Source of the DNA: a virus
Taxonomy: Duplodnaviria; Caudoviricetes
DNA length: 60,740 nt
Strand: one strand, 5' to 3'
Virus record (IMG/VR): IMGVR_UViG_3300035670_000223
Coordinates: 1 to 60,740 of that record
Shown: positions 25,001 through 59,412 of the stretch, one piece after another
Layout of the letters: each line of letters opens with the position of its first letter
How positions within the stretch are numbered: position 1 is the stretch's first letter
Position numbers and translations under genes: made by a program
Notes under the pieces: generated by a model
Databases searched by the model: none
The model's input: only the letters and a program-made list of their open reading frames with translations
What the model was told of the DNA's origin: nothing

Positions 25001-28000
25001 ATCTTTTTTGTTAATGATTCAACCGGTTCGGTTTCAGTATATGGAAATATCAATGGAACACCTACCGTTGAGGGGATATATAAAACACAAAATGGTGGAA
25101 ATTCTTGGTCTTTTGTTACTATATCTGATTTTGCAGCTTCAAATACCAAAGGACATTTACAATTTATAACATCAAGAAAAGGGTATGTTGGTGGTGCACA
25201 CGGCACAGACAAATATTCTGGCTTATATAAAACTATAGATTCTGGAGATTCTTGGACTAGGATTTTAACACCATATTCTTCATCTGATAATAGTCCAATA
25301 ACTGCCCTTCACTTTTTAGATGAAGCGGTTGGTGTTATAGGTGTTGGCAATGAAATATGGAAAACAACAGACAGTGGATCATCGTGGTCAAGAACACACC
25401 AATTGAGGAGAATTGTTGGTAGAGATTTTGTAGGAGTCAGTGGTTCAATAAATGATATTAAATTTAATTCAAACGGAACACTTGGATTCGCAGTTGGATT
25501 TTATGCATCTACTAATGATTCTACACGGGGTGAGCATTTTGTACTTAAATCTATAGATTCTGGTTCATCGTGGACTGAAGTCGATTCCAACCATTCATAT
25601 GTTGATTTGGAATTTGATTTTGATAATAGTAGAAATTTAGTAGGACAACCGTCAAACCTATATACGATTGCTTTTGCAGAACAGGTAATATTGGCCGAAG
25701 AAAGTCAATCTGTAGTAGAACCAGATCCCGAAGAACCAAGACCAACGGATGACTGCTTTGGAAGTAAGTTCATGAGTGCATCGTATTATAACTTTGAAAA
25801 TTTTGCATATAAGTGTACTCCATCTGGATCTAGGCCAATATATCATCCAAATATATCTCAGAATATTGGATTAGGACGGGGTATATTTGGTCAGAGAACA
25901 TCTATTGACAGAGCTGTATTAAAAAATACAATCCGATATGGCGCAGCTCTTGGTGTAAATGCATTAGGAAAAGCAGAAAACAGTAAGGGCGATACTGCTG
26001 CTGGCTTTGGTGCAATGGATCAGATGGAAAATACTACAAATAACGTAGCTATTGGATATAAGGCATTGAGTTGGAACCGTCCCGATGCAAATTTAACCGG
26101 TGGAACAAATACAACAAGCACTGCTGGTGTAAATTCTCTTATATTTGCATTAAGAAATAATGCCGCATTGCTAGTATCAGAAAATGGTGGTAGATATTGG
26201 TCAGTAGATAGAACACAGCTGGCGGGCTATGGAACTGGATCGGAAAATTTAGAATTTAGAAAAATATACAAAGTAAGCAATGATGAAGTGCTTGTATTGG
26301 CAAATTCTATATCAGATGATCCGGGAGAAAAAACAGTAATTGCAAAATATAATAAAAAAGCAGATGATTATAGTGTAATATTTACTTCATCAATAGATAG
26401 AATCGATGAACTTGATGTCTTAACACCGTCGATTGTATATGGAATTGATACAAGACAGAAAAAATTCTTCAAATCTATATCAGGGGCAACTGGTTTTGAA
26501 ACTGGAAGTATTTCGGATACAGCTGGTAATTTTTTAAGATCCGTTAATATGTCATCGCAAACAGTAGGATTTATTGTTGGTTCCAAAATTTGGAAATTGC
26601 AAGATGGCAGTCAATTAGAATGGGAAACATCAAGTTATGCAGGTGAGCATATCATTAACGCTATAGACTATGTATCACCGGGAACACGCACATGGGTTGC
26701 AGTTGGTAATAGTGGATCTATTTATAGAACTACAGATAGAGGAGAGACTTGGTCACATATACAACCCAACATAACAACTCAGAATTTAAAGGACGTTAAA
26801 TCGGTTGGTAATAGGGTCATTGCAGTTGGCGATAGTGGAAGTATCCTTGTTAGTAATAATTCCGGATTAACATGGGCAAGTGGGCAATTTGTTCAGGATA
26901 ATGTTGAATATAAAACATTATCAAACATTACCATATTGGACAAAGACTCAATAATTGTTAATCATGATTCTGGATTAATAAAAACATCAGACGGTGGACG
27001 AAACTGGTATGATTTGGAAATACAAGATTTAGCTGAATACTTGTATGGAAGCTTTACCGGATCCGAAGATTTCCCAATGTTAATAAAATCAATTACAAAT
27101 ACAAGATATTCAGTTGATAGGGCGTTTGCACCTAGCAGTGATTTATCTATTATAAATCCATCTGCAGTACGACCAGTCCCTGAACAGATTGCCCAAACTC
27201 GTACTGTTGATGAAAACGTAGCAGTTGGTTCCTATAGCTTATATGCTACGGCAAATTCATCAAAGATGGTAGCGATTGGAGCGAACGCACTCAGAAGCGT
27301 ATCTTCTAATGAACAGGGGAGCCCTCCAAATTCTGGCGAGACAATTTTTTCAACAGCATACGATTTTGTTAGCAATATAACTGCTTCGGGTCTTCCAGCA
27401 ACATATGGTCAAATTGCAATCGGAGCAAACTCACAACAAAAATCAGATAACTCATTTTTTAATACTTCCGTTGGCTATGCTTCATTATATGAATTGGATA
27501 ACTCATCGTATAATACTGCAATTGGATTTTATAGCCAACATTTTAGTAACAATAACAGAAATACATCGCTTGGTGTTTGGGCACTTGGATTAAATGCTGA
27601 TTTAGGATTATCGGATGGAATACTATCTACGGATTCTACAGTAATTTCAAGTTCATTCTTTGGTGGAAGTGATAATATTGCAATTGGCTATAAAGCTTTG
27701 TTGAACAATGTTACTTCACACAGAGTATTTGAAATGAGAAGAGCCGGTACCGATGACCCATATGTTGGTCTGGCTTCACTGGGAAGTAGAAACATTGCAA
27801 TAGGAAATAATGCATTTTTAAATTCAAATGGTTCAGTTGATACAATAGCGATAGGACACGGCGCAGTTGAAAGACGCGGTAGTGATCTAACAGATTCTGT
27901 ATTTGTTGGGAATTTTGTTGGAGAGAATTTTGGACCATTAACCGGATCATATTATTCCAGTTCATTGGAAAATGATTGGAGATTAACTCAAACTGTAGCA

Positions 28001-44450: not shown

Positions 44451-45092
44451 ATGAAAAGATCTAAATTATATTACCCTAAAACTGCAATAACTGAAAACCT
44501 GTATACAAATGGCGGAGAATATATGTTTGAAACCGGAACAATGTATGTTGGTTATTACCACAAGTATGACACCGGTGAAGTTTTTACAAGACCAGTGTGG
44601 GATCCTAACAAATCTATAAAATTATTACCATACACAGATATTTCGGGATTACCTGCTGGTAGTTATCAAACACCGGGTCAACTTAAAGCTTTTTTATTAT
44701 CTGATTTAAACCAAAAGAAATATAAAAATCCAATTTCAAATACAACAAGTCCATCTGATGATGATTATATACGTGGTTATTATTATAGATATTTTACGGT
44801 AAAACGAAATGAACCGGAAAAAATGACAGAGATAACTAGAACTGAATTTTTAAACGCAGGAAATGTTTCTGGTATAAATACATTTTTATATAAAGTTGGA
44901 AAAATAAAATGGCATTTAATTGGAGACGAATACGATACTAAAAATCAAAATGGCGTTGTAATAAAAAAAGGTGTAATAGATAATAATGCAAGAGAAGTGT
45001 TTGCTTTATTGCAAACATATCCTTATATTTATACGTTATTTGGTGATTATAGGCAATATACACAATATAGTAGATTATACACACGGTTATGA
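44451..45092 (+). CDS. Hypothetical baseplate-cluster protein
   Basis: YYPK...NLYTNGGEY...YVGYYH and PSDDDYIRGYYYRYF; SD aggag. Confidence 0.75.
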   Translation: MKRSKLYYPKTAITENLYTNGGEYMFETGTMYVGYYHKYDTGEVFTRPVWDPNKSIKLLPYTDISGLPAGSYQTPGQLKAFLLSDLNQKKYKNPISNTTSPSDDDYIRGYYYRYFTVKRNEPEKMTEITRTEFLNAGNVSGINTFLYKVGKIKWHLIGDEYDTKNQNGVVIKKGVIDNNAREVFALLQTYPYIYTLFGDYRQYTQYSRLYTRL

Positions 45093-46336
45093 TTTTTATT
45101 GAAACACCCGATGAACTGGAAATATTAACAAATAAAAGAATAATTGTTGTACCAGTTGTCGATGGAAAACAGCATTTTATCTATGAAATGGCGGTTCTTA
45201 TATACATAATCGATGTGGATTCGCATGAAGAGTATGTTATAAATTTAACACATCCAGACTATACATCATATGCAGGGCCATTGCCAAATATGACAAACGC
45301 ATTTGTTTTGGGATTAAATAAAAAGTTCTTGTATCATAATAAAGTTGTAAGCGATAATTCAGTAGATTTAAATTTTTTTATTTACCCAGACAAACATAAA
45401 AAGTTTGATTTTTACGAATATATACCAAAGCCATATTTAATTTATCAAAATAGATTTGTTGAATGGAAAACATACCCATTATCTATTTTGATAAAGATGT
45501 GTAATGATGTTGCATTAGAGATGCTGGCATATGTGAATAAGTTTGACGATTATTTATTAGAAATTAAAAAATTTGATAACTTATACTATAATTCTTTATT
45601 TAAAACCGAAACAAATATATTTGAATTTGATAACGATGGTGTGTATTCTAATTATAATCCATACACCCTAACGAATAGACCATCGAATTCTTCGTTTGAT
45701 ATTAATCTGTCTGCGTTACCAAAAAAGGGAAATATTAGAGATAAAATTAAATCTTCTACCAATAAAAAATTGGTTCAATTTGATTATACGTCATTTCATG
45801 TTTACTTATTAACAAAAATGTTAAATTTTGAGTTGCCAAATAATATAGACATTTATTTATTTTTAAATGATGCTTATAATTTTTCATCCAAAACAGATAG
45901 AGATGAAATAAAAATGGATTTTTTCAAGTATATATACGGAAAAACAGAACACAACTCAGATTTATCTAATATCATTAGTGATTTTAAACATACTTTATTT
46001 GAGTATTATAAAAATAATGGTCATGTAATATCTTTTTTCTTAAAACGAAAGATATTTTTTAATAATCATGATATTGATCAAAGTAATAAGCTGTTTAATT
46101 ATTATTTACAAAATGCAGAAACGGAATACAATTTCTTAAAAATACAGGAAATCATTGAACGTATACCAAGTCAAGAAGCTAATCTATTTTTGTATACATT
46201 TGATAGCTTTTTATTTGAATTCAATGATAATAATCCAGATATAATTTATAAAATAAAACAGCTTTTAGAAAAAGATGGAATACCAGTAACCACTAAAGTT
46301 GGATCAACTTATGGTAATTTAATTGATATTTATTAA
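45089..46336 (+). CDS. Compact, divergent family A DNA polymerase-like protein
   Basis: TLTNRPSNSSFDINLSALP (cf. TGRLSS..PNLQNIP), motif A LVQFDYTSFH, motif B RDEIKMDFFKYIYG, NYYLQNAETE (cf. N..IQGSAAD), motif C LYTFDSFLFE. Confidence 0.75.
   Translation: MIFIETPDELEILTNKRIIVVPVVDGKQHFIYEMAVLIYIIDVDSHEEYVINLTHPDYTSYAGPLPNMTNAFVLGLNKKFLYHNKVVSDNSVDLNFFIYPDKHKKFDFYEYIPKPYLIYQNRFVEWKTYPLSILIKMCNDVALEMLAYVNKFDDYLLEIKKFDNLYYNSLFKTETNIFEFDNDGVYSNYNPYTLTNRPSNSSFDINLSALPKKGNIRDKIKSSTNKKLVQFDYTSFHVYLLTKMLNFELPNNIDIYLFLNDAYNFSSKTDRDEIKMDFFKYIYGKTEHNSDLSNIISDFKHTLFEYYKNNGHVISFFLKRKIFFNNHDIDQSNKLFNYYLQNAETEYNFLKIQEIIERIPSQEANLFLYTFDSFLFEFNDNNPDIIYKIKQLLEKDGIPVTTKVGSTYGNLIDIY
46326..46334 (+). promoter_or_regulatory. 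Putative late promoter motif ATATTTATT
   Basis: At the 3' end of the PolA-like gene, 28 nt upstream of ATG 46362. Confidence 0.5.
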
Positions 46337-46361: not shown

Positions 46362-48125
46362 ATGCAAAATGATCAAAAACAAATAATAGAATTAATAACA
46401 GAAAACATATTAAATGAAGTTTTAGGCGTAGACCCAAACTCGCTTGAGTTTGATTTTATGGTTGAAAAGATTTTAATCAATTGTGGATTGGAAGAGAAAT
46501 ATGTTTTTGAATTAATTAATACTTTGAAAAAATCATTAAATGAAACAAAAAATTATAATAATATTTTTATTAAAAAAGAGATTAGTAATTTTGTAGATAT
46601 TGTTTTTGAAGAAAAAAGACAGGTAGATAAAATTGCAGTAAGAAACAAGCAGTCTGGTGCAATTCAATTGGTATCGAAAAAAACATATCAAGCAAATTCA
46701 CAGATTTATACTCCGTTGTCTGCTGGGTGGGCTAAAGCAAATGTCATAATGGTTAGAAATAAAACCAGTGGTGAAGAATACCCCATCTTATTAAAGAACT
46801 TTGATTCAAATAAACATGAAAAAGTAGGAACGGGACGACCGCCAGAAGAAAAAGAAAAGGAAGCACCGTTGCAGGCTAAACCCGCCGTGCCTGTTCCTAA
46901 TCGAAAAGATAAAAAACAAAAAGACGCAGAACTGCCTAAAAAATCAAAGGATACGGTTAGACCGATTATGATTGAGCCTAGTTTAAAGGCAAAAACAATG
47001 ACAGCATTCATACTTCCAAAAGATATAAGTAAGCAACAAACCCCACCAGAATTCCCAGAAAAAGAAAGTGATATAATATCAAAAGTAAATCAATCTATAA
47101 AAGATAAAAAACTAAATAAAAATCTTCCATTGGAACGCCCATCCTTCAAGTATGCTGGGGATGACGGTGATTATGAAATATACGATAAACTGGGAGATTC
47201 TGGTCTTTTACCACCGGGCTTTAATTTAAATAAACGATATACTATACCCAATAGTTTAACGAATAAAATTAAAATACCACGTGGTTATGTTACAATAATA
47301 GAACAATTAATTAACACTATAAATGGGGAAAATACAACAATTGGATCATATAGCATTCCATTTGCAATTAAAACAAACCCAAATGCAAAACTATCGCTAT
47401 TTGAGCTAATACTGTTATATTCAGTATGCTTAGATAATGAAGATTTTTCAAAATTTTCAATTTCAATTGAAACGTTTATTAATTCTGGAATTGAAAGTAA
47501 TTTAACAAAAGAATTATGGGATAGTGTTATAGCAGAAAGAAAGTTAATTATAAACTATCTGATAAAAAAGTATTCGTCAATTTATACCATCGTTGCCGGT
47601 GCATGGAAAACAGAGGACCATCAGCTAGATCTAGGAATAGATGATTCAGAAATTGATATGGATAAAGTGTCAGATATTTTTCTTAGGATAAAAAATGAAG
47701 AAGGATCAGATATTTTAGAAGAATTTTTAGTTACTCCAAATAGATCTACGTTAATTTATTTAGACAAACCACAATTCGTAAAATATATAAAAGTTAAAAA
47801 AGAAAATATAAAAGCAAAATTATTAATGTTTATTTTAAAAATGTTTCCACTTCAACGTATATTAGAAGGTAATATAGCCGTTGTATTTCCAAATGTTATA
47901 TATGACAACATTACATTAATCGAACTTTTTAAAACACAATCCGTAGACAATCTTGAATTAAAATTAAAACATGCTGATAAGCAAATACATTTAATGTATA
48001 AACTGGAAGAACAGTATAAGAATATAATTTCAATTATGATCGATGACATCATTAATTTAAAAATTGATGACGCATTTGAAAAAGACTGTATTACAATTAA
48101 CAATAAAATTTATAAAATAGACTAA
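46362..48125 (+). CDS. Hypothetical protein, candidate head internal protein
   Basis: ATG 46362 is in frame with ORF 46323..48125. The N-terminal region has repeated (I/L)xE sites (IIE, ITE, LNE), two short VRNKxSG repeats and a Pro/Lys linker. Confidence 0.7.
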   Translation: MQNDQKQIIELITENILNEVLGVDPNSLEFDFMVEKILINCGLEEKYVFELINTLKKSLNETKNYNNIFIKKEISNFVDIVFEEKRQVDKIAVRNKQSGAIQLVSKKTYQANSQIYTPLSAGWAKANVIMVRNKTSGEEYPILLKNFDSNKHEKVGTGRPPEEKEKEAPLQAKPAVPVPNRKDKKQKDAELPKKSKDTVRPIMIEPSLKAKTMTAFILPKDISKQQTPPEFPEKESDIISKVNQSIKDKKLNKNLPLERPSFKYAGDDGDYEIYDKLGDSGLLPPGFNLNKRYTIPNSLTNKIKIPRGYVTIIEQLINTINGENTTIGSYSIPFAIKTNPNAKLSLFELILLYSVCLDNEDFSKFSISIETFINSGIESNLTKELWDSVIAERKLIINYLIKKYSSIYTIVAGAWKTEDHQLDLGIDDSEIDMDKVSDIFLRIKNEEGSDILEEFLVTPNRSTLIYLDKPQFVKYIKVKKENIKAKLLMFILKMFPLQRILEGNIAVVFPNVIYDNITLIELFKTQSVDNLELKLKHADKQIHLMYKLEEQYKNIISIMIDDIINLKIDDAFEKDCITINNKIYKID

Positions 48126-48139
48126 TCTGAGGTAAATAT

Positions 48140-48532
48140 GTGAAAGGTATATTATTATGTACGTTTGTTCGCGGATACGCCATAAATTCTGTAATTGATG
48201 ATCTGTTATATGAGTATGGCGATCTTTTTGATAACAACAAAATTTTTTTATTTGCAACTGATGACAAAAATCGTTATATTTTATCTTACAATCTTTTAGT
48301 AGACAGAGAAATACAATTTTATAATAATACGGTGTTGGTTCACCGAAAAAAAGAAACAAATACAATGTATACTATAAACGCAATAAACGAACTTATAAAA
48401 AATTTGAATAATGGTATACTTGATAAAAGTTATAAAATAGACTGGGAATTATATAAAAATTCATTGCTTGTCTCTAATAATGGAAATTTTAGGACAATTC
48501 CCACACAATTGAAAAAAATTTACAATATTTAA
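48140..48532 (+). CDS. Hypothetical protein
   Basis: GTG start with SD gaggt; LLCTF...HRKKETNTMYTINAIN...IDW. Confidence 0.8.
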   Translation: MKGILLCTFVRGYAINSVIDDLLYEYGDLFDNNKIFLFATDDKNRYILSYNLLVDREIQFYNNTVLVHRKKETNTMYTINAINELIKNLNNGILDKSYKIDWELYKNSLLVSNNGNFRTIPTQLKKIYNI

Positions 48533-48604: not shown

Positions 48605-49396
48605 ATGGCTATCAATTTAGATTCAATAAAGAATCGATTGCAAACGTTGCAAGATCAAACGTCGGATAAGACGGAAAAGAAATCAACGTTGGACGACATC
48701 TGGAAACCAGAAGTTGGACAACACCAAGTTAGGATTGTACCATACGCCCATAATAAAGAAAATCCATTTATTGAAATGTATTTTCATTATAATTTAGGAA
48801 AGCGCACATTTCTTTCCCCTGCAACTTACGGAAACCCCGATCCTGTTGTTGAATTTGCGCAAAAATTACAAGGTAAGGGCACAAAAGAAGATTGGGTTGC
48901 TGGTAAAAAACTAGAACCAAAACTTCGTGTTTATGCACCGGTAATAGTTAGAGGAGAAGAAGATAAAGGCGTTAGGTTCTGGGGGTTTGGTATTACTGTA
49001 TATCAAGAATTGCTTTCATATATATCAGATTCTGATTACGGTGATATCACCGATCCATTAAATGGAAGGGATATCGTATTGGATGTACAGCCACCAGAAA
49101 AAACAGGCAAAAAATTTCCAACAACTGCAATACGTATAAAACCAAACACATCTAAAGTCTCTGAAGACCCTTCTGTAATCAGTTCAATTAAAAATCAAAA
49201 AAATATAACTGAAATATTTTCAGAACCATCTTACGATGAATTAAGCCAAGCACTTGAAAAATATCTCTTCCCAGAACAGGAATCTGAAGTACAGACTGAT
49301 TATTCAACTTCCATTGCATCGGAATCAACACAATCTACAAAATCAACTGTAGATCAAATAGAGCAGCAATGGAAAGAATTATTTGACGAAGAATAA
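48605..49396 (+). CDS. Single-stranded DNA-binding protein (gp32-like)
   Basis: WKPEVG..QVRIVP, GVRFWGFG..VYQEL, DITDPLNGRDI and an acidic tail ELFDEE. Confidence 0.88.
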   Translation: MAINLDSIKNRLQTLQDQTSDKTEKKSTLDDIWKPEVGQHQVRIVPYAHNKENPFIEMYFHYNLGKRTFLSPATYGNPDPVVEFAQKLQGKGTKEDWVAGKKLEPKLRVYAPVIVRGEEDKGVRFWGFGITVYQELLSYISDSDYGDITDPLNGRDIVLDVQPPEKTGKKFPTTAIRIKPNTSKVSEDPSVISSIKNQKNITEIFSEPSYDELSQALEKYLFPEQESEVQTDYSTSIASESTQSTKSTVDQIEQQWKELFDEE

Positions 49397-49407
49397 GGGA
49401 GTTTTAA

Positions 49408-50559
49408 ATGGCAAAAACAAAAACAACTTCAGAAGTATCTGAAGACTTAGGCGCACTGTTGGCCGATACATTGAATAAAAAATTCAAAGAAAGTTCATTT
49501 AAAACAGCTTATTTTTTAGAAGGCGATCCAGACGCACCAGTTCACGTAAACGAATTTGTTTCAACCGGTTCTTCTATTTTGGATTTGGCAATATCAAATA
49601 AAAAAGATGGTGGATTTCCAGTGGGCCGTATTACCGAAATAACAGGGTTGGAGCAAAGCGGTAAATCTTTACTTGCTGCTCATGCGATAGCAAACACACA
49701 GAAAAAGGGTGGTATGGCTATATTCATTGATACTGAAAACGCATTCCCGCCTGAATTTTTTACGGCGATTGGAATCGATTTGAAAAAAATGCTTTACATA
49801 CCGATGGATACCGTTGAAGATATATTTGAAGCAATAGAAACAATGGTAGAAAAAGTACGAGCGTCTGACAAAAAAAAATTGGTTACAATTGTTGTTGATT
49901 CGGTTGCTGGTGCATCTACAAAGCAAGAAATGGAATCCGATTTTGAAAAAGATGGCTATGCAACAGCAAAGGCAATCATAATTTCTAAAGCTATGCGAAA
50001 AATTACCAATTTAATTGGAAGAGAGCGAATTTGTTTGATTTTTACAAATCAGCTTAGAACAAAGATGGGCGTTAGCTTTGGTGATCCGTACACAACTTCA
50101 GGTGGAAAGGCAATTGCATATCACTCAAGTGTTCGTCTTAGATTAAAAAATATTGGAAATATCAAGGCAAAACTAAACGGTGTTGAGCAAATTGTTGGTA
50201 AAAAAACTTCTGCAAATGTTGTAAAAAATAGACTAGGCCCACCTGAACGCGGGTGTGACTACGAAGTATTTTATGCATCCGGTATAGATAACTATAATAG
50301 TTGGTTAGGAGTATTAAAAGAATACAAACTAGTAAACCAAGCCGGGGCATGGTATTCATATATCAATAAGATTTCAGGTGAAGAAATAAAATTTCAAGCA
50401 AAAGATTTTAAAAATCTTATATTAAACGATCAACAATTGTATGACACAATTTATGATGAAATATGTGAACATCTTATAATGAAATATGAAACATCTGCGT
50501 CTCTTTTAGAACTGGATGATGTTATTACCGATACGGCAGATGTAGATGAGCTTTCGTAA
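49408..50559 (+). CDS. uvsX: RecA/UvsX-family recombinase
   Basis: STGSSILD, GRITEITGLEQSGKS, FIDTE, VVDSVA, FTNQLR, TTSGGKAI, VVKNRLGPP and GAWY. Confidence 0.95.
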   Translation: MAKTKTTSEVSEDLGALLADTLNKKFKESSFKTAYFLEGDPDAPVHVNEFVSTGSSILDLAISNKKDGGFPVGRITEITGLEQSGKSLLAAHAIANTQKKGGMAIFIDTENAFPPEFFTAIGIDLKKMLYIPMDTVEDIFEAIETMVEKVRASDKKKLVTIVVDSVAGASTKQEMESDFEKDGYATAKAIIISKAMRKITNLIGRERICLIFTNQLRTKMGVSFGDPYTTSGGKAIAYHSSVRLRLKNIGNIKAKLNGVEQIVGKKTSANVVKNRLGPPERGCDYEVFYASGIDNYNSWLGVLKEYKLVNQAGAWYSYINKISGEEIKFQAKDFKNLILNDQQLYDTIYDEICEHLIMKYETSASLLELDDVITDTADVDELS

Positions 50560-51587
50560 TGAATAAAAAGTATTCAGAGTTATTTAAACAGGTAAAAGAA
50601 GAGCATTCAAATAGAGCCAACTTAAATAAGAATAGTAAAGTTCTTATAATAGATGGCATGAATACCTACATAAGAACCTTTTCTGCTAGTCCTGCATTAA
50701 ATGATAATGGCGAACACGTGGGTGGGTATTATGGTTTTATTAATGTTTTAAAAAATATAATAAAACTTATAAATCCCACCCGCGTTATTATAGTTTTTGA
50801 TGGAAAAGGCGGATCTCAGAAAAGAAAAAAAATTTACGCTAATTACAAAGAAGGCCGCGCAATTAAGAATAAGTTAAACAGGGTTTTAGAATTAGATGTA
50901 AACGATGAACAAAAAATCTTAAAACTCCAATTTATACGTCTTTTGGAATATCTAGAATGCCTTCCCATAACTATAATGTCTTATGATTATATAGAGGCAG
51001 ACGATGTCATTGCTTTTTTAGCAACAGAATGTTTAAAAGAAGAAGTTATTATCTATTCAAACGATAAGGATTATTATCAACTTATAAATGACCGCATCTC
51101 AGTATATTTCCCAGCAAAAACAAAACTTTATACAAAGACAGATATAATAACAGAGTATAATATTTTGCCAGAAAATTTTATATGGCAAAAAGTTATTTTG
51201 GGAGATAAGTCAGACAATGTAAAAGGAATAAGGGGAGTTGGTATTGGGAAGTTTAATCTAGCATTTTCTTTTTTAAAAGAGAAAATCTATTCTTTGGATG
51301 AATTTAAGGAAATACTTCTCGAATCAGATAGTAAAATTTTGAACAAAGTAAAAAATTCAATTGACATTGTTGAGAGAAACTATTATATTATGCAGTTGTC
51401 TGATGTTGACATTAGTGGCAACACAAAATCAAAAATAATAAATTTATTAGATGGTGAACCACCACAGCTAAATAAACCCAAGTTAAAAACGCTAATGATA
51501 ACAGATAAGCTAAATTCATTAATAAAAAATTATGAAATATGGATTTCAAACGCATTCGATAAACTAAACTACTATAGGAATAAATAA
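50559..51587 (+). CDS. 5'-3' exonuclease / flap endonuclease (T4 RNase H / PolI N-domain-like)
   Basis: LIIDGMN, VFDG, YKEGR, EADDVIA, SNDKDYYQL and GDKSDNVKGIRGVG. Confidence 0.93.
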   Translation: MNKKYSELFKQVKEEHSNRANLNKNSKVLIIDGMNTYIRTFSASPALNDNGEHVGGYYGFINVLKNIIKLINPTRVIIVFDGKGGSQKRKKIYANYKEGRAIKNKLNRVLELDVNDEQKILKLQFIRLLEYLECLPITIMSYDYIEADDVIAFLATECLKEEVIIYSNDKDYYQLINDRISVYFPAKTKLYTKTDIITEYNILPENFIWQKVILGDKSDNVKGIRGVGIGKFNLAFSFLKEKIYSLDEFKEILLESDSKILNKVKNSIDIVERNYYIMQLSDVDISGNTKSKIINLLDGEPPQLNKPKLKTLMITDKLNSLIKNYEIWISNAFDKLNYYRNK

Positions 51588-52936
51588 TGACAGACAGATT
51601 AGATAGTTATGGCTATAACTTTCAGATTAAAATCATCACATGTCTATTAAAAGACCGTGCATTTTTACATCAAGTTAGTGATGTTCTTAACCCAAATTAC
51701 TTTGAATCTGAAGCTACCAACTGGATTGTTAGAACCATATTAAACTACTGGGATGCATACCGAAATTCACCAACAATTGAAGTTTTAAAAGTAGAGATAG
51801 AAAAAATAGATTTAGACATTTTAAAAATAGAAGTAAAAGATAAGGTAAAGGATGCTGTCAAAAATTTTGACGCAACTGATCTGGATTATGTTAAACAGCA
51901 AACACTAGATTTTTGCAAAAATCAAACTTTAAAAAAAGCAATTTTAGATTCAGTTGATCTTCTTAAAACTGGTGAATACGATAAAATCAAATATAAAATA
52001 GATAATGCAATACGTTCTGGAACAGACAGAAATTTGGGCCACATTTATTCAAAAGAAATAGATGATCGGTATTCACAGTATGCAAGAAGTCCACTTTCAA
52101 CTGGATGGGATCTGCTTGATAAATTGATGGATGGTGGCCTTGGCAAAGGCGAGCTTGGCGCGGTTATGGCCCCGGCTGGTATTGGAAAAAGCTGGATGCT
52201 TGTTAGTATAGCGGCCAACGCTGTAAAACATGGAAAAACTGTTATTTATTATACAATGGAATTGAACCCGTATTATGTTGGACAACGATTTGACGCTTGG
52301 TTTACAGGCGTCCCGTTTCAAAACTTGAAAGATGACTCAAACAGAGAACGGTTAAACAGTATCATTGGTAATATAAATGGCGAATTAATTGTAAAATATT
52401 ACCCAACTAAAAGCCCAACCGTATCAACAATTTCAGCGCATATCGAAAAATGCATTATGCAAGAAAAAAAGCCAGATCTTATTATAGTAGATTATGCCGA
52501 TCTCATGAGAGCTTCTTCTGGGGTGTCTGATTCAGAATCTGAATCAAATCAAATATATGTAGAATTGCGCGGGTTAGCCGGTGAATACGATATACCAGTA
52601 TGGACGGCTTCTCAGACAAATAGGGGCGGTTTAAAAGAAGATGTAATTGGGGGTGATAACATTGCATCGTCATATAGAAAGCTGGCTCATAGCGATTTTA
52701 TGATGTCTTTAAGCAGAAAAATAGAAGATAAGGTTTCTGGAACAGGTAGAATTCACATAATAAAAAATAGATTTGGTGCGGATGGAATCACTTTCCCAAG
52801 TAAAATAAATACGTTTAATGGTCACATTGAATTATTTGAACCGAACAGTGAAGCCAGTAGAGATATGCAACCTGCGAGTCAAGAAGAAATAGTTAGAAAA
52901 TCTTTAGCTGAAAAATTTAAAGCACTTAAATCATAA
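51587..52936 (+). CDS. Replicative DnaB-like helicase (gp41-like)
   Basis: APAGIGKS, YYTME, IVDYAD, WTASQTNR and KNRFG. Confidence 0.94.
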   Translation: MTDRLDSYGYNFQIKIITCLLKDRAFLHQVSDVLNPNYFESEATNWIVRTILNYWDAYRNSPTIEVLKVEIEKIDLDILKIEVKDKVKDAVKNFDATDLDYVKQQTLDFCKNQTLKKAILDSVDLLKTGEYDKIKYKIDNAIRSGTDRNLGHIYSKEIDDRYSQYARSPLSTGWDLLDKLMDGGLGKGELGAVMAPAGIGKSWMLVSIAANAVKHGKTVIYYTMELNPYYVGQRFDAWFTGVPFQNLKDDSNRERLNSIIGNINGELIVKYYPTKSPTVSTISAHIEKCIMQEKKPDLIIVDYADLMRASSGVSDSESESNQIYVELRGLAGEYDIPVWTASQTNRGGLKEDVIGGDNIASSYRKLAHSDFMMSLSRKIEDKVSGTGRIHIIKNRFGADGITFPSKINTFNGHIELFEPNSEASRDMQPASQEEIVRKSLAEKFKALKS

Positions 52937-56052: not shown

Positions 56053-56148
56053 TTAGAACGATATCTGCTTGATGATTGATCAAGTTTCAATGGGTGGGCT
56101 CCGTTGAGTAAAACGATAGGCCCTTATTAATTATTATTGAGGTGTTTT

Positions 56149-58668
56149 ATGTATCAAAATGTTTTTTATGACAAGGGCACGAAAATTGCCCATATATGGG
56201 ATGATGAAAAGGGCCATATAACGTTTCCTTTTACTCCATATGCGTTTAGGAAATCTTCACGAGGAACTTATACATCGTTGTTTGGTGATAAGTTAGAAAA
56301 AATAACGTATTTTGATAAAAATGATCCGACGTTATTTGAAGCCGATGTTGCTGAGACTACTAGAATATTAGTAGACATGTATACGGATTCGGATGCTGTT
56401 TCAACTGGACACAATATTATGTTTTTTGATATTGAAGTTGAGATGGACTCTGGGACCCCCGACACTGAAAAAGCAGAAAATGAAATAACATCTATTGCTA
56501 CATATTTTTCTAATACAAAAAAATATACTGTATTTGTATTAGATAAAGATAATTCTGCTTCAAAAACAAAATTAGAAGATTCAAGTGTTGATCTTATATC
56601 ATGCTTGACGGAAAAAGATTTGTTGAAACGATTTTATGATTTGTACGAAAAAGAAAAGCCGACAATTATAACCGGGTGGAACTGTGATTTTTTCGACATT
56701 CCTTATTTGTTTAATAGAACAAAAAACATTCTTGGTAAAAAAGCTGCGTTGAGAATTTCCCCAATTGGAGAACACTTTTTCTCTCCATATAGAAATAGAT
56801 TTTTCTTTGGTGGCGTCTCTGTCTTAGACTACCTGAGTATTTACAAGAAATTTACATATACGCAATTGCCCTCCTATTCATTGGATGCTGTATCTAAAAA
56901 AGAATTAGGACGGGGTAAGGTTGAGTATGAGGGAAACTTGGATGAATTAAAAAAGAATGATTTAAAAAAATTCATTGAATACAACATAACAGACGTTGAA
57001 CTTATCGTAGAGATGAATGAAAAACTTCAATTCATTGATCTTGTAAAGGGTATATGTCATGTTGGGCATGTTTCATACGAAGATTACGTATATTCATCTA
57101 AGTATTTAGAGGGTGCCGTATTAACATATTTAAAGCGCAGAAACATTATTGCACCAAATAAGCCAGCAGATAGACAAGAGCGAATGGCAGCCGTTAGGGA
57201 ATCTGGGGAAGAAAAGTTTATTGGTGCTTATGTGAAAGATCCAATTGTAGGCAAATATGAGTGGATATATGACCTAGACCTTACATCGCTGTATCCATCG
57301 ATTATTATGTCTTTAAACATATCCCCAGAAACAAAAATTGGTAAAATAGATAATTGGAATGCAGAAGATTACATTAAAGGTGTTCAGAAAGAATATATCG
57401 TTGATGGTGAAATTATAGAAAAAGAGCAAGTTGAAAAGTTTTTCAAAACATACAACTACTCAGTTGCATCAAACGGTGTATTATATAATACGGAAAAGAA
57501 GGGTGTAATTCCATCAATTTTGGATGAATGGTTTGACCAGCGTGTTGAATATAAAAATTTGATGAAAGAGTATGGCAAATCTGGCGATAATGAAAAATAT
57601 AATTTTTATAAGCAGCGTCAATTAGTTCAAAAAATTCTGTTGAACTCTTTATACGGGGTATTGGGATTGCCCGCATTTAGATTTTATGATATAGATAATG
57701 CAGAAGCTGTAACTCTTACAGGACAAACTGTAATTAAAAAAACAGCTGAAGTTTTAAATAAAAAATACAATAAAGAACTTCAAACAGAAAATGTAGATTA
57801 TAATATTTACATTGACACTGATAGCTGCTTTTTCTCTGCCTTACCGCTAGTGGTGCATAGATTCCCAGATGTGGATACATCCGATGATGCTATAATGACA
57901 GAAAAGATTTATGATATTGCAAATGAAAGTCAATCATTTATAAATTCATTTTATGATATTTTCTCTAAAAAATACTTTAATATAAATTCACACCGCTTTG
58001 AAATTAAGCAAGAAATGATAGCCAAATCCGGTATATGGATAGCTAAAAAAAGATATGCTCAATGGATTATAGCGGATAACGGTGTTAGAGTTGATAAATT
58101 AGATGTAAAAGGTCTTGATGTTGTTAGATCATCATTCCCAAAAGCATTTCAAAAATTCATGTCAAATCTTTTAATATCTATTTTGAAGGGTGCATCGAAA
58201 GATGAAATAGATAACATGATTTTGGAAATGAAAAAAAATGTTCGTAATGTTGACATCGTTGACTTGGCTAAAAACTCTTCTTTAAATAACTTAGTTAAAT
58301 ATAGTGGAAAAATAGATGTTGATAGAATAAATTCGTTTGGCAAAGGTACACCTGCACAGGTTAAAGCTGCCATTGCATATAACAGATTATTAGAACATTA
58401 TAAGTGTCCGTTTAAGTATATGCCGTTTCGAGATGGCGATAAATTAAAATGGATTTATTTAAAGGATAATCCGTTTGGAATAGATACGTTGGCATTTAGG
58501 GGAGATAGCGACCCAAAGGAAATCAAAAAATTTATTACAACATATGTAGATCCAGACTTTATGTTTACATCTGAGTTGGATAACAAATTAGAAGATTTTT
58601 ATAGCGCATTAAAATGGAAAATGCCATCACCAAGTAGTAAACTTATTAACGAATTTTTTCAGTTTTAA
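56149..58668 (+). CDS. Family B DNA polymerase (gp43-like)
   Basis: Exo motifs FDIEV, GWNCDFFDIPY and YNITDV; polymerase motifs DLTSLYPS, KILLNSLYG, YIDTDS and KKRY; ATG 56149 with SD gaggtg; C-terminal LINEFFQF. Confidence 0.97.
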   Translation: MYQNVFYDKGTKIAHIWDDEKGHITFPFTPYAFRKSSRGTYTSLFGDKLEKITYFDKNDPTLFEADVAETTRILVDMYTDSDAVSTGHNIMFFDIEVEMDSGTPDTEKAENEITSIATYFSNTKKYTVFVLDKDNSASKTKLEDSSVDLISCLTEKDLLKRFYDLYEKEKPTIITGWNCDFFDIPYLFNRTKNILGKKAALRISPIGEHFFSPYRNRFFFGGVSVLDYLSIYKKFTYTQLPSYSLDAVSKKELGRGKVEYEGNLDELKKNDLKKFIEYNITDVELIVEMNEKLQFIDLVKGICHVGHVSYEDYVYSSKYLEGAVLTYLKRRNIIAPNKPADRQERMAAVRESGEEKFIGAYVKDPIVGKYEWIYDLDLTSLYPSIIMSLNISPETKIGKIDNWNAEDYIKGVQKEYIVDGEIIEKEQVEKFFKTYNYSVASNGVLYNTEKKGVIPSILDEWFDQRVEYKNLMKEYGKSGDNEKYNFYKQRQLVQKILLNSLYGVLGLPAFRFYDIDNAEAVTLTGQTVIKKTAEVLNKKYNKELQTENVDYNIYIDTDSCFFSALPLVVHRFPDVDTSDDAIMTEKIYDIANESQSFINSFYDIFSKKYFNINSHRFEIKQEMIAKSGIWIAKKRYAQWIIADNGVRVDKLDVKGLDVVRSSFPKAFQKFMSNLLISILKGASKDEIDNMILEMKKNVRNVDIVDLAKNSSLNNLVKYSGKIDVDRINSFGKGTPAQVKAAIAYNRLLEHYKCPFKYMPFRDGDKLKWIYLKDNPFGIDTLAFRGDSDPKEIKKFITTYVDPDFMFTSELDNKLEDFYSALKWKMPSPSSKLINEFFQF

Positions 58669-58680
58669 AAGAAAATTATT

Positions 58681-59412
58681 ATGGAAAAAAATAAACTATT
58701 TTCATTTATATCCAAATACTCGCTCGGCGGATTGATAGAATCCGCCGAGTGGAGCTTAACACAAGATGAATTATCAACAAAATTTATTTCTGACGATGAC
58801 AATGCACTTGGAGAGGTAAGACTCCATAATGTTGAAAACTTAAATTATTCAAATGATGAATTGTTTGGAATTGCAAATACAGGATTTTTGGTTAAAATGA
58901 TGTCTGTGCTGGGAGACAATATACAATTTGAATTGAAAGCAAAGACGGGTATGGTTCCGGATACATTAAAAATTTCAGATGGAGAATCTGAAATAAATTA
59001 CATGTTAGCTGATCCAGTTATTATACCAAAGGCACCAAGTCCTAAAAACTTACCAGATCCAACATATGAATTTGATTTTGATAAAAGCAGTTTTTTGGAT
59101 AAATTTATAAAGGCAAAATCAGCATTTTCTGATGTAGAGACTTTTACACTAAATCCAACGAAAAAAGGATTGGAAGTTATAATCGGAAATTCTGTAAACA
59201 AAATAAAAATGCCAATAAAATCTGATATAATTGGCACGCCATCTAGACCTATCGTATTTAGCGCAAAGTATTTCAAGGAAATGCTTTCTGCTAATAAAGA
59301 AATGATATCGGCTACATTTTCTGTATATGAACGTGGGATGTCTAGAGTAAAATTTAATCATGCAGATACAGATGTCACTTATTTTTTAACAGAAATAATA
59401 ATACAACCTTGA
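58681..59412 (+). CDS. Sliding clamp (gp45-like)
   Basis: 243 aa, two alpha/beta repeats, INYMLADP..I..AP linker; directly after the polymerase. Confidence 0.7.
   Translation: MEKNKLFSFISKYSLGGLIESAEWSLTQDELSTKFISDDDNALGEVRLHNVENLNYSNDELFGIANTGFLVKMMSVLGDNIQFELKAKTGMVPDTLKISDGESEINYMLADPVIIPKAPSPKNLPDPTYEFDFDKSSFLDKFIKAKSAFSDVETFTLNPTKKGLEVIIGNSVNKIKMPIKSDIIGTPSRPIVFSAKYFKEMLSANKEMISATFSVYERGMSRVKFNHADTDVTYFLTEIIIQP

Follow-up and report, generated by a model that had tools for sequence, protein, structure and literature searches.

The window analyzed here, viral record IMGVR_UViG_3300035670_000223, is a linear fragment of 60,740 bases that CheckV rates as about 33% complete. It encodes a protein of the divPolA1 type, P0001, directly after a block of structural genes, and a series of replication and recombination genes follows. 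The genes considered below are listed with their evidence; fractions of loci count homologues downstream of divPolA1 genes in the 42 IMG/VR loci that extend at least 6 kb in that direction.

44451..45092, plus strand: 213-aa ORF, last gene of the structural block, without a Pfam or PHROG match
45089..46336, plus strand: divPolA1-type gene P0001, predicted 415-aa family A DNA polymerase, thumb-truncated and exonuclease-dead (ORF with ATG start, AF2, Foldseek, hhalign)
46362..48125, plus strand: 587-aa ORF, variable accessory gene (listed from a TTG at 46323, but more likely to start at the in-frame ATG of 46362)
48140..48532, plus strand: conserved 130-aa ORF between the divPolA1 and SSB genes (synteny; AF2 pLDDT 95.2), 41/42 loci
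48605..49396, plus strand: gp32-like ssDNA-binding protein (SSB; PF08804, E 1.1e-11), 41/42 loci
49408..50559, plus strand: RecA/UvsX-like recombinase (PF00154, E 1.9e-57; phrog_97), 39/42 loci
50559..51587, plus strand: 5'-3' exonuclease/flap endonuclease (FEN; PF02739, E 2.9e-34), 37/42 loci
51587..52936, plus strand: DnaB-like replicative helicase (PF03796, E 9e-19; phrog_19, E 1.8e-84), 27/42 loci
56137..58668, plus strand: family B DNA polymerase (PolB), T4 gp43-like (PF00136, PF03104; phrog_262, E 4.2e-196)
58681..59412: clamp-like gene, weak match (phrog_223, E 1.4e-6)

The original prediction described the polymerase gene as ATGA-coupled to its upstream neighbor. The overlap is present at 45089 to 45092, where the ATG of P0001 lies on the TGA of the 213-aa ORF, and this ORF shares 34% identity with the one upstream of the divPolA1 gene in phage Mel-JY01. 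However, the coupling is a local arrangement and not a family feature: among 50 loci that reach 5 kb or more upstream, a homologue of the 213-aa ORF lies upstream in 20 and directly adjacent in 8, and on these counts the ORF was rejected as a dedicated partner of divPolA1. The 587-aa ORF was likewise rejected as a universal partner, since 43 of 80 IMG/VR loci have a member of its family and neither of the complete relatives, Mel-JY01 and Flavobacterium phage immuto, does; it has no Pfam or PHROG match, and five family members scanned against Pfam gave none.

Fold and family of P0001

Direct sequence searches with P0001 returned no Pfam family at E ≤ 10 (PF00476 included), a best PHROG match at only E 0.65, and unrelated PDB proteins from E 0.26 upward (phmmer); a 25-sequence family profile searched against PDB sequences with hmmsearch yielded only noise at E 0.55. 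Because these searches gave no Pfam, PHROG, or PDB match, the family was assigned by profile-profile and fold comparison. The AF2 model is of high confidence (pLDDT 91.1, pTM 0.89), and of its best 500 Foldseek matches in the PDB, 231 have E ≤ 1e-3. All of those listed are family A DNA polymerases (PolA). The best E values, 1e-15 to 1e-13, belong to the apicoplast polymerase apPOL (E 2.9e-15), Pol nu, and Pol theta; Klenow lies in the same range, and Mycobacterium smegmatis Pol1 is also among the matches. TMq was 0.72 for Klenow (1kfd/1d8y), aligned over the whole length, and 0.71 for Bst; the range over solved PolAs, 0.60 to 0.72, corresponds to a Klenow-type palm and fingers. The top BFVD matches of the model are phage PolA proteins. 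A structure search had been proposed beforehand as the check for a PolA fold, and the fold was found.

Profile comparison led to the same family. A 54-member family profile aligned with Escherichia coli Pol I over 227 columns (hhalign probability 96.1%, E 3.1e-9), with residues 185 to 406 of P0001 corresponding to 655 to 920 of Pol I, and the family A motifs A (DYS..), B (R/K..F..YG), and C (.D.) occur in this order. The Pfam DNA_pol_A model is matched by 10 of 25 close homologues (best E 1.4e-8), and the immuto homologue reaches 43.9 bits summed over PF00476 against a gathering cutoff of 34.3.

The gene type is already published and does not represent a new class. By the published account, divPolA1 was named and described in 2024 from 14 phages, with the protein of immuto as the type; these phages are large and aquatic, with genomes of 155 to 190 kb, and also encode a regular DNA polymerase (DNAP) of family A, B, or C (Virol J 2024;21:200; PMC11348598). 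The completeness estimate of the window fits this size range without proving it. Our literature search returned the term divPolA1 only in the 2024 paper and its preprint. P0001 (415 aa) and the immuto protein (gene 1, 441 aa) are homologous over their full length (family profile hhalign probability 100%, E 6.6e-76, 429 columns; tblastn E 8e-16, 89% coverage).

The family proved to be large. P0001 has 26 homologues at E ≤ 1e-3 beside its own cluster (27 rows), down to E 1.4e-155, and the family comprises 1,459 representative clusters (50% identity) at E ≤ 1e-3, 621 of them at E ≤ 1e-30. At least 576 IMG/VR viral contigs carry it, while a pattern search of 185,579 species genomes located divPolA1 loci only on 13 MAG contigs; one other pattern set used in the same search for cellular copies gave no loci. 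Because the family count is so large and only 13 MAG contigs carry such loci, divPolA1 can be regarded as a hallmark gene of an abundant aquatic phage group.

Domains and active-site residues

The P0001 gene was divided into the following parts, all on the plus strand. From motif 2 onward, Pol I positions were taken from hhalign of the 54-member alignment, and column counts refer to 168 members of the divPolA1 family.

45089..45472, plus strand: N-terminal 3'-5' exonuclease-like domain, aa 1-128 (Foldseek to Klenow; weak hhalign to Pol I 331-550)
45479..45640, plus strand: thumb stump, aa 131-184, with two helices, motif 1 Glu E174, and a hairpin (model secondary structure, alignments)
45641..45727, plus strand: motif 2 region, aa 185-213, R197 = Pol I R668 (hhalign)
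45770..45811, plus strand: motif A, aa 228-241, LVQFDYTSFHVYLL, D232 = D705 (codon 45782-45784), H237 at the E710 position (hhalign)
45899..45940, plus strand: motif B/O-helix, aa 271-284 (hhalign)
46190..46213, plus strand: motif C, aa 368-375, LYTFDSFL, D372 = D882 (codon 46202-46204), S373 for E883 (hhalign)

The N-terminal 183 residues align weakly with Pol I 331 to 550 (probability 48%, E 1.8e-4). In this weak alignment, which was made without residue-level superposition, the exonuclease carboxylates D355, E357, and D424 of Pol I fall on D25, K27, and N77. Across the family, the D355 position is Asp in 95 of 168 members and the D424 position in 73, and the E357 position is Glu in only 15. 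Structural motifs of the domain are kept, namely H55 (PVAHDY in Pol I) and D93..Y99 (FDTMLESY). With the caution that a weak alignment imposes, the substitutions K27 and N77 agree with the earlier observation that there is no clear proofreading DxE.

The thumb, suspected from the outset to be largely deleted, is reduced in the model to two helices (131 to 151 and 153 to 167) and a hairpin, with the motif 1 Glu retained in 164 of 168 members. Because the alignment stops at Pol I 550, in its low-confidence N-terminal part (48%), and restarts at 655, approximately 100 thumb residues (about 551 to 654 of Pol I) have no counterpart in P0001. The architecture is, in sum, a degenerate, noncatalytic 3'-5' exonuclease-like domain followed by a palm and shortened fingers, with nearly all of the thumb lost. 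A thumb-truncated Pol I is described as active, with lower processivity and fidelity (Minnick 1996, cited in PMC10061031). The thumb loss in P0001 goes further than the tip deletion that leaves Klenow active, an observation that counts against an active enzyme.

The palm and fingers are much better conserved. Both catalytic aspartates, D232 (within the QFDY of motif A) and D372, are present in 168/168 sequences, as are R197, N206, K275, and the Q849 equivalent; the N845 equivalent is kept in 161. In motif B, R271, K275, F279, Y283, and G284 correspond to R754, K758, F762, Y766, and G767, with F279 in 164 members and Y283 in 163; the Arg of the R754 column is kept within the clade of P0001 but is not conserved across the wider family. 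Motif C reads F371-D372-S373 in place of H881-D882-E883. The motifs first picked out from the sequence (QFDY, R..K...YG, and FDS for HDE) are real and all map onto Pol I, and the two aspartates, whose conservation among homologues had been named as a check, are invariant. Two further columns depart from Pol I: the E710 position is His in 164 of 168 members, and the S373 column is Ser in 137, Ala in 29, Gly in 2, and acidic in none.

In Klenow, R668, Q849, and N845 sense the minor groove where primer and template are paired. Because their equivalents are conserved, templated primer extension is the favored chemistry for P0001. Meanwhile, the replacement of E883 by Ser or Ala and of E710 by His, together with the variable R754 column, means that kinetics or substrate choice could differ from those of Pol I. 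The same His at the E710 steric gate would suit an RNA polymerase or a sugar-permissive enzyme, and motif C, YDSF in this comparison, resembles the HDSF at residues 811 to 814 of T7 RNA polymerase; the idea of an RNA polymerase has also been raised, in the published description, for the sister variant divPolA2 (PMC11348598). We nevertheless give ribonucleotide use very little credence, since the family aligns to T7 RNA polymerase with an hhalign probability of 0.06% (E 0.74) against 96% to Pol I, the Foldseek matches listed are all DNA polymerases, the residues equivalent to F762 and Y766 are those of a DNA polymerase, and there is no promoter-recognition N-terminal domain. Kinship with T7 RNA polymerase was rejected on the 0.06% probability; hhalign to T7 DNA polymerase gave only 1.1%.

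The losses (E883 and the thumb gone, R754 variable in the wider family) might also be read as those of a catalytically dead relic kept as a scaffold or regulator. This is hardly credible, because eight active-site and DNA-contact positions are kept in 168 sequences that are elsewhere only 22 to 30% identical; such conservation would be unexpected in the absence of selection on catalysis. Taking identity and competence together, it is highly probable, from sequence and model, that P0001 is a catalytically competent, compact Pol I-like DNA polymerase of the divPolA1 family. The family-wide changes E710 to His and E883 to Ser or Ala, as well as the thumb loss, yield testable predictions on sugar selectivity, processivity, and fidelity, and the compact 415-aa scaffold may attract enzyme engineers.

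The replication module and possible roles

The SSB-RecA-FEN-DnaB order at 48605 to 52936 is the order seen in immuto, Mel-JY01, and the IMG/VR loci, and divPolA1 is the first gene of this conserved replication and recombination module (130-aa ORF, SSB, RecA/UvsX, FEN, DnaB) of large aquatic myophages. An SSB-RecA-5'-3' exonuclease-DnaB module downstream of divPolA1 is likewise part of the published description (PMC11348598). The model of the 130-aa protein found no PDB fold match at E ≤ 1e-3 and no OB-fold in the fold search, and a protein atlas search with it was uninformative (scores ≤ 0.87). Its predicted complex with P0001 (score 0.00, mark 0.32) speaks neither for nor against binding.

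A family B replicase and a separate 5'-3' exonuclease had been noted downstream, and Pfam and PHROG matches located both; for the clamp named with them, there is a clamp-like gene with a weak match. PolB has its motifs intact (DIE, SLYPS, KILLNSLYG, and DTD). Together with the fold, the motif mapping, and the conserved aspartates, this bears out the view of P0001 as a second, miniaturized PolA beside a full PolB. Among the relatives, Mel-JY01 encodes a PolB and immuto a full 778-aa PolA; three of five long related contigs carry a PolB, and the remaining two end near divPolA1. One could invert the relation and take divPolA1 for the true core replicase, with the regular polymerase as its auxiliary, since divPolA1 is described as lying in the conserved replication module and the regular DNAPs as lying in a semiconserved, mixed neighborhood and being swapped between families (PMC11348598). 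This is very improbable: an enzyme without proofreading and thumb would have low fidelity and processivity, which is implausible for genomes of 155 to 190 kb, and PolB here keeps all catalytic and exonuclease motifs, with the clamp-like gene adjacent.

According to the above-described analysis, P0001 would be an active, template- and primer-dependent, nonproofreading, and distributive DNA polymerase. Its most likely role appears to be distributive, error-prone gap filling with the flap nuclease. More generally, we propose, tentatively and at somewhat less than even chances, that divPolA1 carries out short-patch synthesis poorly done by the main replicase. The flap nuclease would remove RNA primers and leave gaps for divPolA1 to fill, so that divPolA1 and the neighboring flap nuclease might amount to a Pol I split in two, divPolA1 being its polymerase half; alternatively, it could extend recombination intermediates made by the adjacent RecA and SSB. 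It is solely gene order that suggests the gap-filling role. T4-type systems mature Okazaki fragments with PolB, RNase H, and ligase, and because they manage without a dedicated gap-filling polymerase, such an enzyme is not obviously required.

The missing proofreading site and thumb would also suit a damage-tolerance polymerase that, like Pol theta or Pol nu, bypasses template damage, for instance from UV light in surface waters, or modified bases stalling the accurate replicase. Both enzymes are among the top structural matches, although Klenow and apPOL are too; the divPolA1 gene adjoins RecA and SSB, and immuto carries annotated 7-deazaguanine DNA modification genes. However, 415 residues leave no room for the insertions of Pol theta and Pol nu, the R668 and Q849 equivalents are invariant, as is typical of accurate PolAs, and the scanned parts of the window hold no modification genes. 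A translesion or mutagenic role therefore seems unlikely.

Priming had been among the roles first suggested for P0001. Like CcPol-MP of SCC elements, it might be a PolA that serves as primase or initiator, starting chains de novo on ssDNA with the 130-aa protein or SSB as partner and then handing over to the replicase of the phage, whatever its family. In the published descriptions, CcPol is a PolA whose exonuclease domain is partial and whose thumb is shortened; a small partner makes it a primase, and its gene lies upstream of a helicase (PMC10061031, PMC10201439). Similarly, divPolA1 heads an operon with a small ORF, SSB, and helicase; divPolA1 is also reported as constant while the regular DNAP switches among families A, B, and C (PMC11348598). 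A Prim-Pol profile search gave no match, and a Toprim primase search gave none in the window, which is about a third of a genome. An argument from the absence of other primases was nevertheless rejected, because Toprim ORFs exist in both complete relatives: a 314-aa ORF in immuto matches Toprim_2 (E 3.1e-5) and a DnaG zinc ribbon (E 2.1e-4), and a 333-aa ORF in Mel-JY01 matches Toprim_2 at E 0.0011, below the Pfam cutoff. Since these relatives encode a DnaG-type primase elsewhere, a priming role is less needed and less likely. The 130-aa protein is without an OB-fold or any PDB match, and the conserved R668 and Q849 equivalents suggest binding of a duplex primer-template, so that a CcPol-MP-like primase is distinctly improbable.

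A related proposal, quite unlikely in our estimate, draws on the His at the steric gate and the Ser at E883 and makes divPolA1 a constant start-up polymerase, either a PolA-derived primase-polymerase or a sugar-permissive primer extender. Acting at forks and D-loops, it would start nascent strands or lengthen them before an interchangeable replicase takes over; if true, this would explain why the main DNAP is swapped among families A, B, and C while divPolA1 is never lost.

Comparison with known polymerases

P0001 shares the overall fold of Klenow, including the exonuclease-like domain (TMq 0.72), and motifs 1, 2, A, B, the N845/Q849 helix, and motif C can all be aligned. It differs in the absence of about 100 thumb residues, in shorter fingers (66 residues between K275 and Q341, against 91 between K758 and Q849), in the lost exonuclease carboxylates, and in His for E710 and Ser for E883. 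Pol I also carries a fused 5' nuclease, whereas P0001 does not, FEN being encoded separately and 4 kb downstream. Like P0001, Pol nu and Pol theta are without proofreading; however, Pol nu, Pol theta, and apPOL have polymerase domains of 570 to 650 residues with complete thumbs and lineage-specific inserts, and they are only 9 to 15% identical to P0001.

Going by their description, the CcPol-MP/PolA-SSB primases of Bacillota mobile elements are, like P0001, small PolAs with a reduced exonuclease and a shortened thumb (PMC10061031), and their gene, as that of divPolA1, is carried by a mobile or viral genome and followed by genes for a small protein and a helicase. In contrast, their hosts are Bacillota islands and not aquatic myophages, and their partner is a small OB-fold ssDNA-binding protein, whereas the 130-aa ORF here has no OB-fold match and a gp32-like SSB is encoded further downstream. 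The DnaG-type primase of the divPolA1 relatives is another difference. Barbaviruses carry divPolA2, as described a second divergent, thumbless PolA beside a PolB; the same description sets it apart from divPolA1 by the missing exonuclease domain, an unrelated N-terminal globular domain, and variable neighborhoods (PMC11348598).

The closest counterpart is published divPolA1 itself, for which the structural reading in PMC11348598 gives a truncated thumb, an inactivated exonuclease, and conserved main palm catalytic residues. P0001 has these features in common with it, as well as the position at the head of the module and a coresident regular DNAP. New here are a family extending far beyond the 14 published phages, the invariance of its catalytic residues, and the change of E710 to His. 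Identity of P0001 with the immuto protein is only 23%, and with the Mel-JY01 protein 29%; because identity is so low, P0001 belongs to a distinct clade of approximately 417-aa proteins. A retained Arg at the R754 position sets this clade apart from the wider divPolA1 family, and at the P0001 locus, unlike in immuto and Mel-JY01, the 587-aa ORF is inserted after divPolA1.

Catalytic core of P0001

45089-46336, + strand: P0001 gene, ATG start, 415 codons, TAA stop at 46334-46336

Routine annotation of P0001, the 415-aa product of this gene, returned 0 Pfam families at E ≤ 10, a best PHROGs match of only E 0.65, and unrelated chains in a PDB sequence search (best E 0.26); therefore, the motif-based reading could not be checked by this route. 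The AlphaFold2 model, built from a 25-sequence alignment, had a mean pLDDT of 91.1 and a pTM of 0.89, with no segment below 50. Of the best 500 Foldseek hits in the PDB, 231 reached E ≤ 1e-3, and all of the matches listed were family A DNA polymerases, including the P. falciparum apicoplast polymerase (E 2.9e-15), human Pol nu and Pol theta, the M. smegmatis Pol1 POL domain (TMq 0.70), the Klenow fragment (1kfd and 1d8y, TMq 0.72), and the Bacillus fragment (TMq 0.71). These alignments spanned 500 to 650 columns and so took in the polymerase domain as well as the N-terminal one. The viral structure library likewise returned phage PolA proteins (best E 2.7e-16, TMq 0.74). The family A fold, whose absence would have counted against the original prediction, was recovered.

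To number the residues, E. coli polA from NC_000913.3 (Pol I) was aligned by hhalign to a 54-member alignment of the P0001 family, which placed P0001 185-406 on Pol I 655-920 (probability 96.1%, E 3.1e-9). R197 corresponds to R668; in motif A, D232, Y233, and H237 correspond to D705, Y706, and E710; in motif B, R271, K275, F279, Y283, and G284 correspond to R754, K758, F762, Y766, and G767; N337 and Q341 correspond to N845 and Q849; and in motif C, F371, D372, and S373 correspond to H881, D882, and E883. This mapping bore out the predicted motifs QFDY, R..K...YG, and FDS in place of HDE. Among 168 family members of 380-480 aa, taken from 175 proteins, D232, D372, K275, R197, Q341, E344, N206, and G405 are invariant (168/168), and F279, Y283, and N337 are kept in 164, 163, and 161 members. 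Loss of the two catalytic Asp residues among homologues, the other outcome that would have counted against the original prediction, was thus not seen in these members. The E710 position is His in 164/168, the E883 position is S in 137, A in 29, and G in 2 but never acidic, and the R754 position shows no conservation in the family at large (43 E, 25 R, 22 P, and other residues), but is Arg in P0001's own clade. P0001 is an enzyme of the Klenow fold, and strict selection acts on its residues for nucleotidyl transfer and duplex sensing; that it is a dead scaffold is barely credible.

Klenow studies place R668 and Q849 in contact with the minor groove of the primer-template duplex. The invariance of their equivalents argues for templated primer extension as opposed to terminal-transferase chemistry. 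Use of ribonucleotides could be read from the His at the steric gate and from the resemblance of YDSF to HDSF at T7 RNAP 811-814, but the hhalign probability to T7 RNAP was 0.06% versus 96% to Pol I, and we consider it extremely unlikely. The invariant E344 (46118-46120) aligns to Pol I Ala852, three residues past the Q849 equivalent. Canonical PolA enzymes lack an equivalent of this Glu, which might make up for the loss of E883 or E710.

Thumb and exonuclease domain

Residue 183 falls near Pol I 550 and residue 185 at Pol I 655; therefore, about 100 thumb residues have no counterpart in P0001, in agreement with the predicted thumb deletion, and the AlphaFold2 model has two helices and a hairpin in their place. 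The fingers are also shorter (K275-Q341, 66 residues versus 91 in Pol I).

A 168-sequence profile of residues 1-184 matched Pol I 324-660 only weakly (probability 48%, E 1.8e-4, 166 columns), placing P0001 2-183 on Pol I 331-550. In this weak alignment, H55 (156/168) falls on the His of 'PVAHDY', D93..Y99 on 'FDTMLESY' given a one-residue shift, and E174, kept in 164/168, on the Glu of 'IERNG'; these motifs belong to the structure of the Pol I exonuclease domain and to motif 1. The D355, E357, and D424 positions, occupied in P0001 by D25 (D in 95/168), K27 (E in 15/168), and N77 (D 73, N 54 of 168), are not conserved in the same weak alignment, as expected from the predicted lack of a proofreading site, and the N-terminal alignment holds no acidic counterpart of Y497 and D501. 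With structural motifs kept and catalytic positions altered, the exonuclease domain appears to be retained as a fold and degenerate as an enzyme. H29 (45173-45175, 159/168), H55 (45251-45253), D/E57 (45257-45259, 165/168), and D93 (45365-45367, 158/168) are potential metal ligands in this exonuclease-like domain; the Pol I motif matches cover H55 and D93, but not H29 or D/E57.

Proofreading and the thumb are lost from P0001. Thumb-truncated Pol I remains active with reduced processivity and fidelity, according to work cited in PMC10061031. We infer that P0001 is an active polymerase that depends on primer and template, is error-prone, and works distributively.

Genomic setting and possible role

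Upstream: myovirus structural block (portal, major head, sheath, baseplate hub and wedge genes)
46362-48125, + strand: 587-aa ORF after the P0001 gene (listed start TTG 46323, in-frame ATG 46362)
48140-48532, + strand: 130-aa ORF between the P0001 and SSB genes, no Pfam/PHROG match
Downstream: gp32-like SSB (PF08804, 1.1e-11)
Downstream: RecA/UvsX (PF00154, 1.9e-57)
Downstream: 5'-3' exonuclease (FEN; PF02739, 2.9e-34)
Downstream: DnaB-like helicase
Downstream: class II-like ribonucleotide reductase
Downstream: PolB, 843 aa (phrog_262, 4.2e-196; motifs DIE, SLYPS, KILLNSLYG, DTD)
Downstream: weak clamp-like ORF (phrog_223, 1.4e-6)

P0001 is an extra polymerase within a replication-recombination operon. 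Profile matches located the predicted PolB and separate 5'-3' exonuclease; a clamp-like ORF is also present, yet its match is weak. The P0001 start codon shares the bases ATGA with the stop codon of the 213-codon ORF before it, but this predicted coupling is local and not general, since the 213-aa gene lies upstream in 20/50 loci and is adjacent in only 8/50. Gene order is the same across 80 IMG/VR loci; among the 42 that extend 6 kb or more downstream, 41 have the 130-aa ORF, 41 SSB, 39 RecA, 37 FEN, and 27 DnaB. The 587-aa ORF family occupies the same slot in 43/80 loci (median 734 aa), is absent from both complete relatives (Microcystis phage Mel-JY01 and Flavobacterium phage immuto), and gave no match in a Pfam scan of five members. 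The listed PolB start is TTG (56137-56151, translation LRCFM); codon 5, an ATG (56149), is the likelier one. Four very large ORFs occupy the tail/baseplate block, the last three without matches in a Pfam and PHROG scan:

22073-30856, + strand: 2927 aa
32059-35253, + strand: 1064 aa
35270-40834, + strand: 1854 aa
41184-44441, + strand: 1085 aa

The role we prefer, tentatively, is short-patch synthesis, in which P0001 would work alongside the neighbouring flap nuclease and RecA/SSB in Okazaki-gap filling or recombination-intermediate extension (a 'split Pol I'). A role in damage tolerance is unlikely. A primase or initiator of the CcPol-MP type is improbable. The DnaG-type primases of relatives make this reading less likely: a Toprim ORF (314-333 aa) occurs in both Mel-JY01 and immuto (with a DnaG zinc ribbon in immuto and a Toprim match below the Pfam cut-off in Mel-JY01), and neither has a Prim-Pol match. 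It is further weakened by the 130-aa protein, which is non-OB by fold search; its very confident AlphaFold2 model (pLDDT 95.2) matched no PDB fold at E ≤ 1e-3. In 46 homologues of this protein, L5, F9, N51, H68, K70, N74, Y77, T78, N80, N83, G92, D95, and W102 are invariant. It may be a replication or recombination mediator that has escaped recognition. That P0001 is the true replicase is very unlikely. Among relatives, the Mel-JY01 PolB is 53% identical to that of the window, an 851-859-aa PolB is found on 3/5 long related contigs (the other two end near the P0001 relative), and immuto has a 778-aa PolA and no PolB. Beside that regular PolA, at 18.6-37 kb, immuto carries a full 7-deazaguanine DNA-modification set (QueC/D/E/F, FolE, DpdA) and GroES/GroEL, none of which was seen in the scanned parts of the window. 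Overall, the observation behind the original prediction was confirmed, but its interpretation was only partly supported.

The divPolA1 family

A word-indexed search with a threshold of E ≤ 1e-3 found 27 homologues, counting the query's own cluster; 23 have lengths of 378-419 aa and identities of 45-61%, and 3 are distant; Pfam DNA_pol_A was matched by 10/25 aligned members (best E 1.4e-8). The profile search of 1.84 billion representatives returned 1459 proteins at E ≤ 1e-3, 948 at ≤ 1e-10, and 621 at ≤ 1e-30, with lengths of 400-470 aa in nearly all of the best 150 listed. At least 597 pattern matches were found in IMG/VR, at least 576 of them encoding a P0001 relative. In prokaryotic genomes (one per species, 185,579 species), close-clade patterns did not occur, and broader patterns gave 13 loci, all on short contigs (4-43 kb) of metagenome-assembled genomes whose labels name unrelated bacteria and one archaeon. 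Mis-binned viral contigs have this appearance, and therefore the family appears viral.

By tblastn, P0001 matched six phage records. The Mel-JY01 match (E 3e-29) has 95% coverage at 28.7% identity and is annotated as hypothetical. Four records of immuto, labelled 'DNA polymerase family A', match at E 8e-16 with 23.3% identity, and the sixth, LR756508.1 from an uncultured phage, is unannotated and aligns to 56% of the query at 33.6% identity (E 1e-25). The paper describing divPolA1 defines this family from immuto and its relatives, 14 phages of 155-190 kb, with AlphaFold models in which palm residues are conserved, the thumb is truncated, and all three catalytic Asp of the exonuclease domain are replaced (PMC11348598; Virol J 2024;21:200). 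The P0001 family profile matched immuto gene 1 over 429 columns (hhalign, probability 100%, E 6.6e-76), which identifies the gene as a divPolA1, in a clade only distantly related to the published examples. In the literature searched, the term occurs only in the 2024 paper and its preprint, and no biochemical follow-up was found. What is new here is the size of the family; a Pol I numbering made explicit, with residue counts across all members compared (His for E710, Ser/Ala for E883, R754 variable); evidence for Pol I structural motifs kept in the exonuclease domain; and the linked 130-aa protein (41/42 loci) without a known fold match in the PDB. P0001 is thus a new divergent member of the 2024 family, not a novel class.
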